Origin: an uncultured Bacilli bacterium
Lineage (GTDB): Bacteria; Bacillota_I; Bacilli_A; RFN20; CAG-826
Assembly: GCA_944369075.1 (NCBI GenBank)
Contig: CALVXK010000007.1
Location: 4,362-68,361 of the forward strand
Length of the DNA: 64,000 bases
Direction of reading: 5' to 3'
The notes under the pieces are model-generated. The model was not told the DNA's origin. It saw only the letters and a program-made list of their open reading frames with translations, and searched no databases. Both the position numbers and the translations under genes were made by a program. Of the stretch, positions 54,386 through 58,611 are shown in pieces (within the stretch, counting starts at the first letter, position 1; each line of letters opens with the position of its first letter).

Positions 54386-54599
54386 CAATGTTTTCTCCTT
54401 TATTTTTAATGATTATATAATACTTCTAGATTTTTAAATTATGAATAATAATAATTTTAAAGTTTTTAATATAAAAAACCTATAATAGTTTTGAAATTAT
54501 AGGTAATTTTTAATTTGCGCTTGGAAAACGCCTTAAATGCCCTCAAAATTGGAAAGCAAACGCCTTTAATGTCTTAAGAAAAATCTTCTATTCTTATTT

Positions 54600-55913
54600 T
54601 TATTTGATTATTTCCCAATAGCCGCCTTTGTCAGGCCCTGAATGCTTGATAATCTTTCGCTCCTGTAATTTTTTTAGATAATGCCTAATGCTTCCCTCTG
54701 TTTTGTGCAAAACAATTGCTATGTCTTTTCTCGAAATATTTCCGTTATTTTTAATTAGTTGAATTATTTCCTCTTCTATGTTTTCTGGTTGTGTCGTGGT
54801 TGTTTTTCTGGTTGTCTTATAAAAACCTTCTCTATTGAATGGTATTACCACATCGATGAAATATTCAGAAAAAATATATGCCTCTTCACCATAAGCTTTA
54901 ACAACCGAAGGAACACCGTGACCACTTTCTTCAGCGAAATTGCACGCTCTAAATATATCAAATAGTTCTTTATTTACTGGCTCGCTTTTGCCACGTAAGA
55001 ATTGCTCCTTAGTTAAAACGCTAGGTATACCACCAAACGATTCGATTTCTAAGCGATCGCTATAAACATATATGCCTGGATGGTTGCTTTCGCTCCATTT
55101 GTTGTGTACACATGCGTTAATCCACGCTTGCTCAAACGCCTCAGTATCAAACATTTTTCTTTCTTTTCGTGGTGTTGTTGTAACATCTACAAACGTTTGA
55201 TTAATTGAATTCACATAATTTTTCGCTTGTTCCATTGCCAATAACAAACATTTTCCACCAAATTCTTCTCTTCTTAAATATTTCGTTTTATCCGAGGAGG
55301 CAAATGTCGCAACATTTATAACAATGTCGTTTTTATCGGCTAAAATTTCTGCTAAATAGTTAAAATGCCCCTCCTTTGTTAGCAAATGATAGTTTTCTAA
55401 AAAAGTATCATCTGAAATATGATTATTATTCGACAGCAAATAATTTTTTAATATTTGAAATGTCAGATGACTTTTTCTAGAAGGAATGTCAACAATGCTC
55501 GTTGTAATATTTGATAACGACTTGATAAATCTTTCCTTTATTTCTTCAGGTGTTAAACTTTTACAAGAAGAGCCTATTCTTATATAGCACCCCATTTCTG
55601 ATAGACCGTATTTTTTTATGTAAAATAACTGGTTGCCTTTTTTTACTTCAATTTTAATAATATTTTTACCATCTATTATTTCATGAAATTGTTTAACAAA
55701 AGAAACACAACGCGGGGAAATTTGATCGGTTATGATATCCGAGATTTCTCGCATAGTTTCGTCAATATTAATAATACCAACAAGATCATTCTTTTTGTTT
55801 ACGCCAATTAATATTGTTCCTCCTTCAGAGTTTAAAAAAGAAACAATCTCTTTTGGTAAAGAATTTGAAACTTTTTCTTTATATTCTAATTTGTCATTTT
55901 CATCGATAAGCAT
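54600..55913 (-). CDS. Schlafen/AlbA_2 + RecG-C-like (HATPase_c_4) + winged-HTH protein, paralog 1
   Basis: 'ENDKLEYKE', 'SFLNSEGGTILIGV', 'INACVHNKW', 'EESGHGV', C-terminal 'GPDKGGYWEI'. Confidence 0.85.
   Translation of the reverse strand: MLIDENDKLEYKEKVSNSLPKEIVSFLNSEGGTILIGVNKKNDLVGIINIDETMREISDIITDQISPRCVSFVKQFHEIIDGKNIIKIEVKKGNQLFYIKKYGLSEMGCYIRIGSSCKSLTPEEIKERFIKSLSNITTSIVDIPSRKSHLTFQILKNYLLSNNNHISDDTFLENYHLLTKEGHFNYLAEILADKNDIVINVATFASSDKTKYLRREEFGGKCLLLAMEQAKNYVNSINQTFVDVTTTPRKERKMFDTEAFEQAWINACVHNKWSESNHPGIYVYSDRLEIESFGGIPSVLTKEQFLRGKSEPVNKELFDIFRACNFAEESGHGVPSVVKAYGEEAYIFSEYFIDVVIPFNREGFYKTTRKTTTTQPENIEEEIIQLIKNNGNISRKDIAIVLHKTEGSIRHYLKKLQERKIIKHSGPDKGGYWEIIK
54781..54814. repeat. 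Intragenic TTTTCTGGTTG repeats (two perfect, one degenerate) in the pre-HTH linker
   Basis: 54781-54791 and 54804-54814 perfect, 54792-54802 degenerate; encode TTRKTTTTQPEN. Confidence 0.85.
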
Positions 55914-55934
55914 CTCAATATCACCTCGCTAATT

Positions 55935-55963
55935 ATTATAGTTCTATAGCAACCAGAAAACAA
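55935..55963 (-). promoter_or_regulatory. Sigma-A-type promoter of paralog 1
   Basis: TTGTTT-17 bp-TATAAT, followed by GAGGTGA RBS 7 nt before the ATG. Confidence 0.65.
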
Positions 55964-55982
55964 CCAGAAAACAACCAGAAAA
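55950..55982. repeat. Three perfect 11-bp direct repeats CAACCAGAAAA overlapping the -35 box
   Basis: 55950-55960, 55961-55971, 55972-55982. Confidence 0.9.
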
Positions 55983-56444
55983 CAGCATGTGTTTTACCTT
56001 GTAAGTTCTTACAGTATTGATGATTTGAAATTTGTAGTACGTATAATCAAGATTCAGTCGTTGTTTTGGCTAATTTTTTGACTAAAAGAAAAATTTTTTC
56101 AGAAATTTTGATTTCGCGGGGGCTAGATCAATATGACAAATCCTCTTCCTTTTATATACATATTTATCATTTGCGAAAATTTGAACTCGAAGTGCTATCG
56201 CCGTGTGCGTATTGCTGGGGTTTGAACTTTTTGAGGTATTTTTTTCTATTTTCGATGGTCATGATGGGACTCCAAAATTCTAGGATACGACATAATGAGC
56301 ACGAATCGGTAATTTTTGGTAAAAAAAATGACCTGTAAAGACTAGACATTATAGGCCTTTTTCAAAGATGCCTACATACTACGCTTTGGATACATTACAC
56401 ACCCTTACAACGGCAACTTTTAGGTTAAACTATTAATCAATATT

Positions 56445-57764
56445 TTAATCTATGATTTCCCAATGACCACCTTTATCAGGGCCAACACGTTTAATTTTAT
56501 TTGATTTTTTAATAATTCTAGAAATTGTGATACGCGACTTATTACATAACTTAGCTAAAGCTTCTTGTGATACGTATGGATTTGATTTAATTGCTGAAAT
56601 AATCGTTTTTTCTGTATCATTTTCTGTATCATTTTCTGTATCATGTTCTGCACCAACATCAGTGACATGCATAGAGGCCATCACTTCTGCATCATATGGT
56701 ATAGAAACATTTATATAATTTTCTTCAATATCAAATACATTCTTATCATAGTGTTTTAAAACTTCAGGCACTCCATAACCCGTTTGTTCGACATATTTTA
56801 AGTCAGATAAAACTCTCATCAGTTCTTTATTTCGAGGAGTACTTATTCCTTTGAAGTACATTTCTTTGGCTTCACCATCAGGCAATCCACCATGAGATAT
56901 AACTTCGATATGATTGGAAAAAATATAAACAGCCGGTTCTACAATAGACCAATCATTATGAGCAATGGCATTTATAAACACTTCTCTTAAACTTGCCATA
57001 TCCATGAGTCTTTTATCAACTCTTTGAGCACCAACAATTCTTGATTTAGTAATATTTTCTGCTTCTAGCCTATTAATTACCCTATCTATAGCGACTAATA
57101 AACATTGATAACCATATTCACTTTTTTCTAATAAAACAGATTTATCTTCACCTTGAAATCTAGCTACCTTAATTGAAATTCTATTTTCATCAGATAAAAG
57201 CTCGGCAAGAAAATTATATCTACCATCATCAGTTTTTAAATGAAGATTATCTACCAAAGTTTCGTCGTTTAAATGATATCCTTTGCTAGAATAATAAATC
57301 TTTAGTTGGTTAAAACTAAAATCCTTTTGACTACTTGGAGTATCAATAATACTTAAATGCTTTGAATAAGTTTTTATGAATCTTCTTTCAATCTCTTCTT
57401 CACTCATGGGCGTTGAAGAAGTTCCGTCTCTATAAAAACAACCAGTCGCACTTCTTCCTTCTTTCTTGATGTAATAGAGTTTGGTTCCTTTAGTCACTCT
57501 GATCGTGATGACTGTTTTATCATCTTCAAGTAATGAACCTATTTCACATAAGCCTTCAGTTGATGGAAGAATCTGATCTCTTATGATGTCTCTTATTTCC
57601 CTCATTGTTTTGTCGACATTAGAAACACCTAAAACATCACCATTATCATCAACACCGATATAAATGACCCCGTTTCTAGTATTGAGGAAAGCTACTACTT
57701 CTTTAGCAAAGTCTTTATTTAACGTTCTTTTAAGTTCTATACTTTCAGATTCTTGAAATTTCAT
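56445..57764 (-). CDS. Schlafen/AlbA_2 + RecG-C-like + winged-HTH protein, paralog 2
   Basis: 'ESESIELKR', 'AFLNTRNGVIYIGVDD', 'INAIAHNDW', 'EQTGYGV', 'GPDKGGHWEI'; start moved to MKFQE. Confidence 0.85.
   Translation of the reverse strand: MKFQESESIELKRTLNKDFAKEVVAFLNTRNGVIYIGVDDNGDVLGVSNVDKTMREIRDIIRDQILPSTEGLCEIGSLLEDDKTVITIRVTKGTKLYYIKKEGRSATGCFYRDGTSSTPMSEEEIERRFIKTYSKHLSIIDTPSSQKDFSFNQLKIYYSSKGYHLNDETLVDNLHLKTDDGRYNFLAELLSDENRISIKVARFQGEDKSVLLEKSEYGYQCLLVAIDRVINRLEAENITKSRIVGAQRVDKRLMDMASLREVFINAIAHNDWSIVEPAVYIFSNHIEVISHGGLPDGEAKEMYFKGISTPRNKELMRVLSDLKYVEQTGYGVPEVLKHYDKNVFDIEENYINVSIPYDAEVMASMHVTDVGAEHDTENDTENDTEKTIISAIKSNPYVSQEALAKLCNKSRITISRIIKKSNKIKRVGPDKGGHWEIID
56608..56650. repeat. 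Three 12-bp tandem repeats TTTTCTGTATCA in the pre-HTH linker
   Basis: Encodes DTEN-DTEN-DTEK. Confidence 0.9.
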
Positions 57765-57852
57765 TATAAAAACACCTACTTTTTTAGCTATGCTAATTAT
57801 ACTTAAAAACAAGCTTATTTTCTAGATTCTAATACATAAAAAGACCAAGGAA

Positions 57853-58330
57853 TCACTCCTCAGCCTTTATCGTAGTTTCAAATCCTGAATAGAACTTGAA
57901 TGTTATCGATTTATCTATATGGACTATTGCTTTTTCTAGATTAAAATTAAATACTGTTTCATCAAAATAAGTAATGAGTTTGCCTTTTTAAAGTGTCTCT
58001 ATGAAGATATTAAACTTATTAACTTTTAGTTTTATTTCATTCTTTTTAGTAATAAGTGAATTAAGTTCTGCTTCTTTGTTTTTATAAATATCCTCAAGTT
58101 CTGCATATTTTTTCGCCAAATAGTTTGATCTTGCTGCGTGATTGTATTCATCTTAACGAGTAGTTCAAACTCTTTGTTCATATCTTTAAGTTCATTAGAC
58201 AATGCTTCTATTTGTTTATCCAAAGACGAAGTACCAAGAGCTTTGCTTACTGCTTATATAAGATTAGTAATAAGAAGGTCTTTACTCCTAATCATCTCGT
58301 TATAGGCTTTAAGGAACATTTTGATGGGGG
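57853..58330 (-). pseudogene. C-terminal remnant of a large serine recombinase
   Basis: Fragments 'MFLKAYNEM..KDLLI', 'LDKQIEALSNEL...QQDQ', 'FDETVF...EKAIVHIDKSITFKFYSG' with internal stops and a frameshift. Confidence 0.6.
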
Positions 58331-58611
58331 TATAAATTAAAAAAAGTAAAAAACATTTCTAGGTATAAAAAGACCACTTAGCTCAATAAGAACCAGATGG
58401 TCAATCAATATTATTAATAAAGATAGGGTGTGCAATTGCCGTTGTTAGTGGTGTGTACGGGTGTACAAAAAAGGGTCGCCGTGTAATAGTGCACACCTGC
58501 CGTTTCAAAGTGAGCCCTAAAAATGACGGTTTTTTGATGAATTTTAAAGATTTCGGCTTCAACTATCGCAAAGGCGTAAATTTAAAAAGTGGCCATTTAG
58601 CCTAAAATCAA

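Follow-up and report, generated by a model that had tools for sequence, protein, structure and literature searches.

Why should one 11-bp repeat lie over the promoter of a gene and also, inverted, inside the codons that join two domains of that gene's own product? The question is raised by a prokaryotic Schlafen gene, here called gene A, which lies in a 64,000-nucleotide stretch of contig CALVXK010000007.1 (assembly GCA_944369075.1) from an uncultured Bacilli bacterium; we refer to this whole stretch as the window. The gene A product combines an AlbA_2 domain, a GHKL-type ATPase domain and a C-terminal winged helix-turn-helix (wHTH), and the inner copies of the repeat encode the linker just before the wHTH. 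Our comparisons of related sequences point to an answer that we consider probable: the wHTH would recognize the 11-bp unit, an oligomer seated on three promoter units would repress the gene's own promoter, and the linker would hold the ancestral copy of the unit.

A first-pass annotation of this DNA had reported three tandem units upstream of the gene and inverted copies, two of them exact and one degenerate, in the linker. Both observations were borne out. A pattern search of the window located three exact tandem copies of CAACCAGAAAA on the forward strand (55950-55960, 55961-55971 and 55972-55982). The reverse complement, TTTTCTGGTTG, is present exactly at 54781-54791 and 54804-54814, and the degenerate copy, TGTCGTGGTTG, lies between these two at 54792-54802, giving a spacing of 11 and then 12 nt. 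Tandem Repeats Finder called the promoter array at 55950-55984 (period 11, 3.2 copies, 100% matches) and the linker array at 54781-54815 (period 12, 3.0 copies, 70% matches). As inverted repeats, the two arrays form arms of 28 nt (54779-54806 and 55957-55984) that are 89% complementary and 1150 nt apart. With up to one mismatch allowed, CAACCAGAAAA had 7 matches in the window compared to a mean of 2.07 in shuffled sequence. The whole 1,250,381-base assembly contains only five exact copies, all of them at gene A, while the reversed-pattern control gave one. The 26 one-mismatch copies elsewhere in the genome are singletons without exception, and no other tandem was found there. The linker copies encode residues ~367-378 (TTRKTTTTQPEN) and read TTRK-TTTT-QPEN, the two exact copies being translated in different frames.

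We next describe the protein that these arrays flank. Gene A has a Schlafen/AlbA_2 domain (PF04326, SLFN_AlbA_2; E 1.9e-19; residues 5-120) whose profile matches the SLFN8, SLFN11, SLFN12, SLFN14 and SLFN5 chains, and whose fold matches include SLFN14, SLFN11, SLFN13 and the SAMD9 tRNase domain. The Ex4ExK motif is present as E5-NDKL-E10-Y-K12 and is predicted to be catalytic; in a 24-sequence alignment E5 and K12 are invariant and E10 is at least 90% conserved. The GHKL-type HATPase_c_4 domain follows (PF13749; E 9.6e-13; residues 278-344). The best structural match was 3lmm (DIP2311; E 5.7e-21), mammalian Schlafens came next, and HK853 was weakly matched. At the C-terminus, residues 379-423 match HTH_24 (E 4.6e-06), and MarR/Lrp-type wHTH regulators in the PDB are among the profile matches of this region. 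An AlphaFold2 model built from the 24-sequence alignment had a mean predicted local distance difference test score (pLDDT) of 83.9. Its C-terminus folds as three helices and a two-strand wing, a canonical wHTH whose first helix begins at residue 376, and the pLDDT falls below 50 only at residues 367-375 (TTRKTTTTQ), the segment that is encoded by the repeat.

The promoter array overlaps the presumed core promoter of gene A, spanning the -35 position and ending just upstream of the -10 hexamer, and arrays are placed in a like manner in orthologues and in other clades. If the spacer is taken as 17 nt, the -35 position lies within the array, where the sequence is TTGTTT, which agrees with the consensus at 3/6 positions. 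The first-pass statement that the array covers the -35 box is therefore right as to position but not as a consensus match. Two other explanations of the arrays were considered and set aside. An inverted paralog remnant upstream of the gene was rejected, the forward strand past the array reaching a stop after 6 codons and showing no likeness to a wHTH. An antisense promoter at the linker array was dropped, as its spacers would be 12 or 23 nt.

If the promoter array is an operator, it should be found at related genes, and we looked for it in two samples that were drawn by protein rather than by motif. A protein search of 40 relatives yielded 28 homologous loci that were chosen by protein match alone. 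Among them, three upstream units are retained, in spite of differing flanks, at L010 (94% amino acid identity, from a different bacterial family) and at L011 (76%). Metagenome contigs scanned by protein yielded 22 loci. All 12 of the full-length metagenome orthologues with upstream DNA (70-81% identity) retain the array, with 1-3 exact units and near copies making up the rest. In a 15-sequence alignment the promoter array was the best-conserved upstream block. In a more distant relative, L097 (60% identity), 3/3 promoter units and 2/4 linker units share a variant core, CAGCCAG, and the recognition helix is changed to TEGNVHHYL. A further orthologue, at L083:1501-3310, has the usual three-unit promoter array and a match that is ~500 nt longer and includes an extra stretch coding for NVTKNVTSDVTT-type repeats.

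Further evidence comes from comparing clades that have different units. Nearly all of the 28 loci carry three to five tandem copies of a 12-nt (four-amino-acid) unit just before the wHTH, and at least 18/28 have a clear period-12 linker repeat. The units spell peptides as varied as GTVN, DTEN, TTQK, VGDK, VGNK, VSNK, NDAK and EHLN. We took one representative per clade (n = 14), defined each unit from the linker alone, and searched the 260-nt start region of every representative. An exact copy of a clade's own unit was present in its own start region in 6/14 clades compared to 0/182 cross pairs. With up to one mismatch, the own unit was recovered in 8/14 clades and in 6/182 cross pairs, and five of these six involve the near-identical units of L021, L028 and L008.

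The positions of these units at the clade promoters look like those of operators. L030, L031 and L035 have the same layout as gene A, one to two exact inverted units and a near copy abutting TATAAT. At L028, L033, L021, L008 and L022 the -10 is flanked by one inverted and one direct unit, and at L015 and L018 direct units overlap the -10. Between L021 and L028, a G to A change has occurred in both the linker and the promoter units. Unit type also tracks the recognition helix: TEGSxR[HY]xL helices go with CAACCAGAAAA-type units and other helices with other units. The first-pass annotation had proposed to test whether the linker repeat recurs upstream in homologues more often than by chance and co-varies with the recognition helix. 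The clade comparison upholds the former; for the latter, the way unit type follows helix type is suggestive but confounded by shared descent.

This confounding is one of several points that weigh against self-encoded autorepression. A consensus promoter scan did not call the gene A promoter at its partial -35. A matching upstream unit is absent from 6/14 of the repeat-linker clades, and these include the adjoining paralog B, whose linker unit has no copy upstream and recurs exactly only once more in the genome, as a lone copy on contig C16. No match was found in the 300 nt upstream of any of the five intact Bacteroidia genes with CAACCAGAAAA linker arrays. HATPase_c_4 genes sampled across the class had a linker-upstream match at 0/30 loci. 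We therefore reject the idea that the feature is general across the HATPase_c_4 class; most of the 30 class-wide loci have other HTH tails and no repeat linker, indicating that it belongs to one subfamily.

Since the identity of the array-binding protein is deduced from sequence comparison, some other factor might bind the promoter array, or the array might be a non-functional repeat that hitch-hikes with the gene, its match to the linker being incidental. The gene moves between genomes as a cassette, and the array could simply be carried along. However, neighbouring genes differ among three genomes that have the cassette (G000, G030 and G005), arguing that no other linked factor travels with it. 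In addition, the array is exact where its flanks have diverged, the unit has no other exact occurrence in the genome, and in at least eight clades the unit differs in step with the HTH type of the gene that carries it. We give this alternative very little credence.

Collectively, the recurrence of each clade's own unit at its own promoter and the tracking of helix type support part of the operator system proposed in the first-pass annotation. From the anatomy, conservation and covariation described above we infer the following scheme of binding, repression and oligomeric occupancy. The C-terminal wHTH of gene A most likely recognizes CAACCAGAAAA. Three units stand head to tail over the -35 region and spacer, and when several wHTH domains of an oligomer are bound there, transcription would be turned off. 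The result would be autorepression of a potentially toxic nuclease. The GHKL domain is described as driving tetramerization in a relative (bioRxiv 10.64898/2026.05.29.728809), and this description, as far as the available text of that account goes, fits the binding of several wHTH domains to tandem units. Each unit consists of 6-7 variable nucleotides and an A-rich tail, 11-12 nt in total; the recognition helix would read the variable part and the wing the A-tract. The linker array would be the family's ancestral copy of the recognition unit. Because the linker unit of each clade matches that clade's own promoter sites, the wHTH and its recognition sequence appear to travel as one module. The two exact and one decayed linker copies of gene A could act as a secondary intragenic site through looping or as a roadblock, and this is the least secure step of the scheme.

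Whether the linker array does anything as DNA is thus a separate question from whether the promoter array is an operator. We searched one genome from each of 185,579 species for the 22-mer formed by two units and found it exactly at 46 loci. These loci were ascertained on the motif and accordingly are not evidence of conservation, a limit that counts against our reading. About half of the 46 are orthologues with the array upstream. The others have the array inside the linker of distant homologues (25-50% identity) from Bacteroidia and from GC-rich Longimicrobiales/Palauibacter (Gemmatimonadota). These distant linker arrays contain 2-9 copies, mixed with variant 11- or 12-mers, and adjoin TEGSxR[HY]xL helices. 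The 11-nt unit is translated in all three frames (QPEN, NQKT and TTRK), indicating that the peptide cannot be what is kept. In a sister clade, comparisons between species revealed 0/48 differences in the arrays compared to 40/240 (p 8e-4) and 69/240 (p 1e-6) in the flanks. Among codons for the same amino acid, 0/16 differed in the arrays and 35/76 and 21/53 in the flanks.

By contrast, the linker copies of gene A itself are no better conserved than its coding flanks (2/36 vs 28/240, p 0.39; 8/36 vs 66/240, p 0.69), and in orthologues of 75-81% identity they have 0-2 mismatches while the promoter units are exact. Both results argue against a role for the gene A linker copies as DNA. They would be expected if only the promoter array is functional and the linker is an ordinary slippage-prone, low-complexity peptide spacer, under selection as protein if under any, whose likeness to the operator is historical, one array having been copied from the other. 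The Bacteroidia genes that have linker arrays but no promoter copies are in keeping with this possibility. The frozen synonymous sites in the sister clade speak against it. So do the non-triplet 11-nt units, which are read in three frames and recur as exact 22-mers across Bacilli, Bacteroidia and GC-rich Gemmatimonadota, adjoining HTHs that are only ~40-60% identical. Moreover, at least eight clades keep linker and promoter units matched, which a one-off copying event would not maintain. We regard the spacer explanation as unlikely, although it deserves to be taken seriously. The first-pass view of the linker as a sequence under selection at the DNA and not the protein level therefore holds for the sister clade, while the linker copies of gene A do not show it. 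For the Schlafen-ATPase-wHTH subfamily as a whole, we only tentatively suggest that the linker is selected as DNA, an array of the gene's own unit that would make domain and operator a heritable and swappable module, and we put the chance of this somewhat below even.

Several other loci have related arrangements. L048 and L068, on Longimicrobiales chromosomes, have two tandem C-terminal wHTH modules, each behind its own CCAGAAA-type array, and the A-rich units stand out in a GC-rich genome. At L045:435-770, two operator units and a TATAAT precede an intact 88-amino-acid open reading frame (ORF) that consists solely of the last strand of the body, a linker and a wHTH with a TEGSIRH helix. This ORF may encode a repressor in its own right, left behind by deletion of a Schlafen gene; comparable but disrupted versions occur at L074 and L077.

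Repeats of this kind might also gain and lose units. Slippage of the 11-nt unit could shift the frame of the wHTH or alter promoter strength and so produce heritable variants, on or off, tethered or untethered. Copy number does vary: among 25 loci selected for the array, 16 have three exact promoter units, eight have two and one has four, and L071, whose product is 98.9% identical to that of gene A, has a true two-unit array. At three Bacteroidia loci (L041, L043 and L062) the wHTH loses its reading frame directly behind an array of 11-nt units, whereas it is in frame in the relatives L078 and L080, which have other copy numbers; the loss could reflect frame switching by unit number, or decay. 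However, the linker array of gene A is interrupted by the degenerate middle unit and by its 11- and 12-nt spacing, making it a poor substrate for slippage. Three units are a strong mode, and an additional near copy is present at 6/8 two-unit loci. A change in the number of identical units leaves the spacing between -35 and -10 as it was. We aligned the Logan contigs of four runs from four studies to 54500-56300, a comparison confined to contigs, from which rare forms would escape, and both arrays were free of insertions and deletions. Slippage might be a source of added variation, yet it leaves the match between promoter and linker units unexplained, and a contingency locus seems to us quite improbable.

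The same contigs bear on a further possibility raised in the first-pass annotation, that the inverted arrays recombine and flip the intervening 1.15-kb segment, with the -10 and the Schlafen/ATPase body, away from the wHTH as a phase switch. The arms themselves are real, as noted above. In addition, the decayed locus L076 (2501-2700) has a hybrid array with the 12-nt linker-type spacing on one side, and this array has the upstream flank on one side and the end of the body, in reverse complement, on the other, as a past strand switch at the arrays would leave. L076 could also be a complex rearrangement or an assembly chimera. Its sequence then jumps, via microhomology (AGAAAA), into the wHTH coding sequence. 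The contigs contained no inversion joints, and two records that span both arrays (X4 record 9 and X7 record 25) are in the reference orientation. All full-length orthologues examined have the reference arrangement (20/20 of those selected by array and 14/14 of those selected by protein). A flipped body would meet a stop 19 nt past the array, and within the window there is no intact recombinase near the gene, only a 63-amino-acid remnant. Furthermore, the direct orientation of the promoter units in L018 and L015 excludes inversion as a function common to the clades. None of the decayed loci proved to be a clean inversion product, since L074 has lost the body by deletion, L077 is what remains of an HTH, and L076 has the hybrid array. 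The phase switch thus found no support here and we consider it extremely unlikely.

We favour autorepression through a self-encoded operator over these alternatives. The contigs of other runs diverge from the window on either side of the gene, at ~54509-54519 and ~56095, and the neighbouring genes differ among the three cassette genomes. On these grounds the element is, to judge from sequence, a mobile single-gene cassette of ~1.6 kb that starts with the proposed operator region. Homology to L010 takes in 441 nt before the gene and 130 nt after it, and homology to L011 begins at the promoter array. Two 23-nt direct repeats that are 78% alike (54526-54548 and 54558-54580) lie just downstream of gene A, inside the shared cassette. 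No terminator-like hairpin was found in 54400-56500. A phage origin was dropped as a candidate, no relative having been found in viral contigs. A protein search of the genome identified four paralogs, and there are six HATPase_c_4 matches.

Paralog B has its own linker repeat, 3.6 copies of a 12-nt unit at 56608-56650 (TTTTCTGTATCA on the forward strand) that encode DTEN. Two copies of ATCTAGAAAA (57818-57833 and 57932-57947) were considered as its operator and rejected; they differ from its linker unit at 3/11 positions. The orthologue of paralog B in G030 (L025) is truncated at its 5' end and fused in frame to a serine-recombinase-like ORF. The 63-amino-acid ORF at 58032-58223 on the reverse strand matches the C-terminal coiled-coil part of that ORF, and the sequence immediately before that ORF is matched by the reverse complement of nearby window DNA (58380-58480). 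The region 58032-58480 may be the decayed edge of an integrated element. The features of the locus are listed in Table 1.

Table 1. Features at and around gene A, in window coordinates.
Feature	Position	Strand	Description
Promoter array	55950..55982		CAACCAGAAAA x3 on +, TTTTCTGGTTG in gene sense; ends 9 nt upstream of the -10; proposed operator
-10 hexamer	55935..55940	-	TATAAT of the presumed gene A promoter, read from sequence; perfect; kept in orthologues
Ribosome-binding site	55920..55927	-	GAGGTGAT; 6 nt before the ATG (55911-55913); identical in L010
Gene A	54600..55913	-	Prokaryotic Schlafen, 437 amino acids; AlbA_2 5-120, HATPase_c_4 278-344, linker 367-375, wHTH 376-437
Linker array	54781..54814	-	In sense order: CAACCAGAAAA (54814-54804), extra A, degenerate CAACCACGACA (54802-54792), CAACCAGAAAA (54791-54781)
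wHTH coding part	54603..54788	-	Residues 376-437; predicted recognition helix 406-418 (EGSIRHYLKKLQE); wing strands 422-425 and 432-435 around GPDKGGYW
Single-gene cassette	54509..56095		Common to other strains; contigs of other runs diverge at its ends
Paralog B	56445..57767	-	38% identical to gene A; same architecture; directly upstream of the gene A promoter region

Where does gene A stand among systems already described? As the classes are set out in the available text of two recent accounts, gene A is a member of the "HisKinase-HTH" class of prokaryotic Schlafens (pSlfns), equal to the "Schlatpase" supradomain with an HTH tail (Nat Microbiol 2026, PMC13056530; bioRxiv 10.64898/2026.05.29.728809). 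The same texts link the prokaryotic Schlafen family to phage defence by tRNA cleavage. The former gives the HisKinase-HTH composition as 19.2% of 5,930 pSlfns, and the latter states that >90% of Schlatpase tails are HTH. These proteins share with gene A an AlbA_2 domain with Ex4ExK, the GHKL-type ATPase (PF13749) and the C-terminal HTH. In the parts of the two accounts available, the HTH is assigned neither a function nor a DNA target, and a repeat-coded linker that matches the promoter goes unmentioned; the main text of PMC13056530 contains no occurrence of "operator", "autoregul" or "tandem repeat". Full-text literature searches on this protein family returned no description of the repeat linker or of its promoter match, in agreement with the first-pass statement that none was known. 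PADLOC-DB 2.0.0 (2023) gave no match above noise, and PADLOC and NCBIfam gave only sub-threshold HTH matches.

Fusions of a Schlafen nuclease with a GHKL ATPase and an HTH rank among the commonest classes of a newly recognized anti-phage family. If the linker repeat spells the HTH site, a defined 11-bp probe would allow a direct test of how a potentially toxic tRNA nuclease is regulated, and the motifs recognized by many relatives become predictable from sequence. Should the linker of the subfamily also be selected as DNA, each of thousands of uncharacterized defence proteins could have its cognate site read off its own gene. The array within the gene would in that case be a second docking site, serving for looping, as a roadblock or to tether the nuclease in an inactive state at its own locus, and where the unit is 11 nt, gain or loss of a unit would also toggle the wHTH in and out of frame. 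The arrangement would be an example of selection at the DNA level on what appears to be a disordered peptide spacer, and it would bear on how domains and sites stay matched during horizontal transfer and the diversification of paralogs. For annotators it is a warning that low-complexity linkers can carry regulatory DNA.

Three better-known arrangements resemble parts of this one. Simple-sequence contingency loci owe their phase variation to slipped-strand mispairing of repeats that lie in coding sequence or in a promoter. They are like gene A in having non-triplet coding units and promoter units whose copy number varies among relatives. The units of gene A, however, are long (11-12 nt) and few (three), and its linker array is interrupted; contingency loci, moreover, do not require that promoter and coding repeats share a sequence.

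Auxiliary operators in coding DNA that act by looping are familiar from lac, where O1 is accompanied by O2 in lacZ and by O3 at the 3' end of lacI, and from gal, where OE is accompanied by OI in galE. As at gene A, a promoter-proximal site is paired with a second site in coding DNA, and O3 even lies at the end of the repressor's own gene. By contrast, the lac and gal operators are single palindromic sites rather than tandem direct units, they are not codons of the repressor's interdomain linker, and they are not known to have an intragenic array that co-varies with the promoter site across a family.

In the form of the array there is a likeness to the sites of two small DNA-binding proteins that bind contiguous short repeats cooperatively, ParR on the ten 11-bp repeats of parC in plasmid R1 and the omega protein of pSM19035 on 7-bp heptads; both repress their own promoters. 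These are ribbon-helix-helix partition proteins with intergenic sites, unlike gene A, and we know of no ParR or omega array that is embedded in the coding sequence of the binding protein. What they would have in common with gene A is an array of head-to-tail units, direct or inverted and about one helical turn in length, that lies over a promoter, and autoregulation by the polymer-like occupancy that we propose for gene A.

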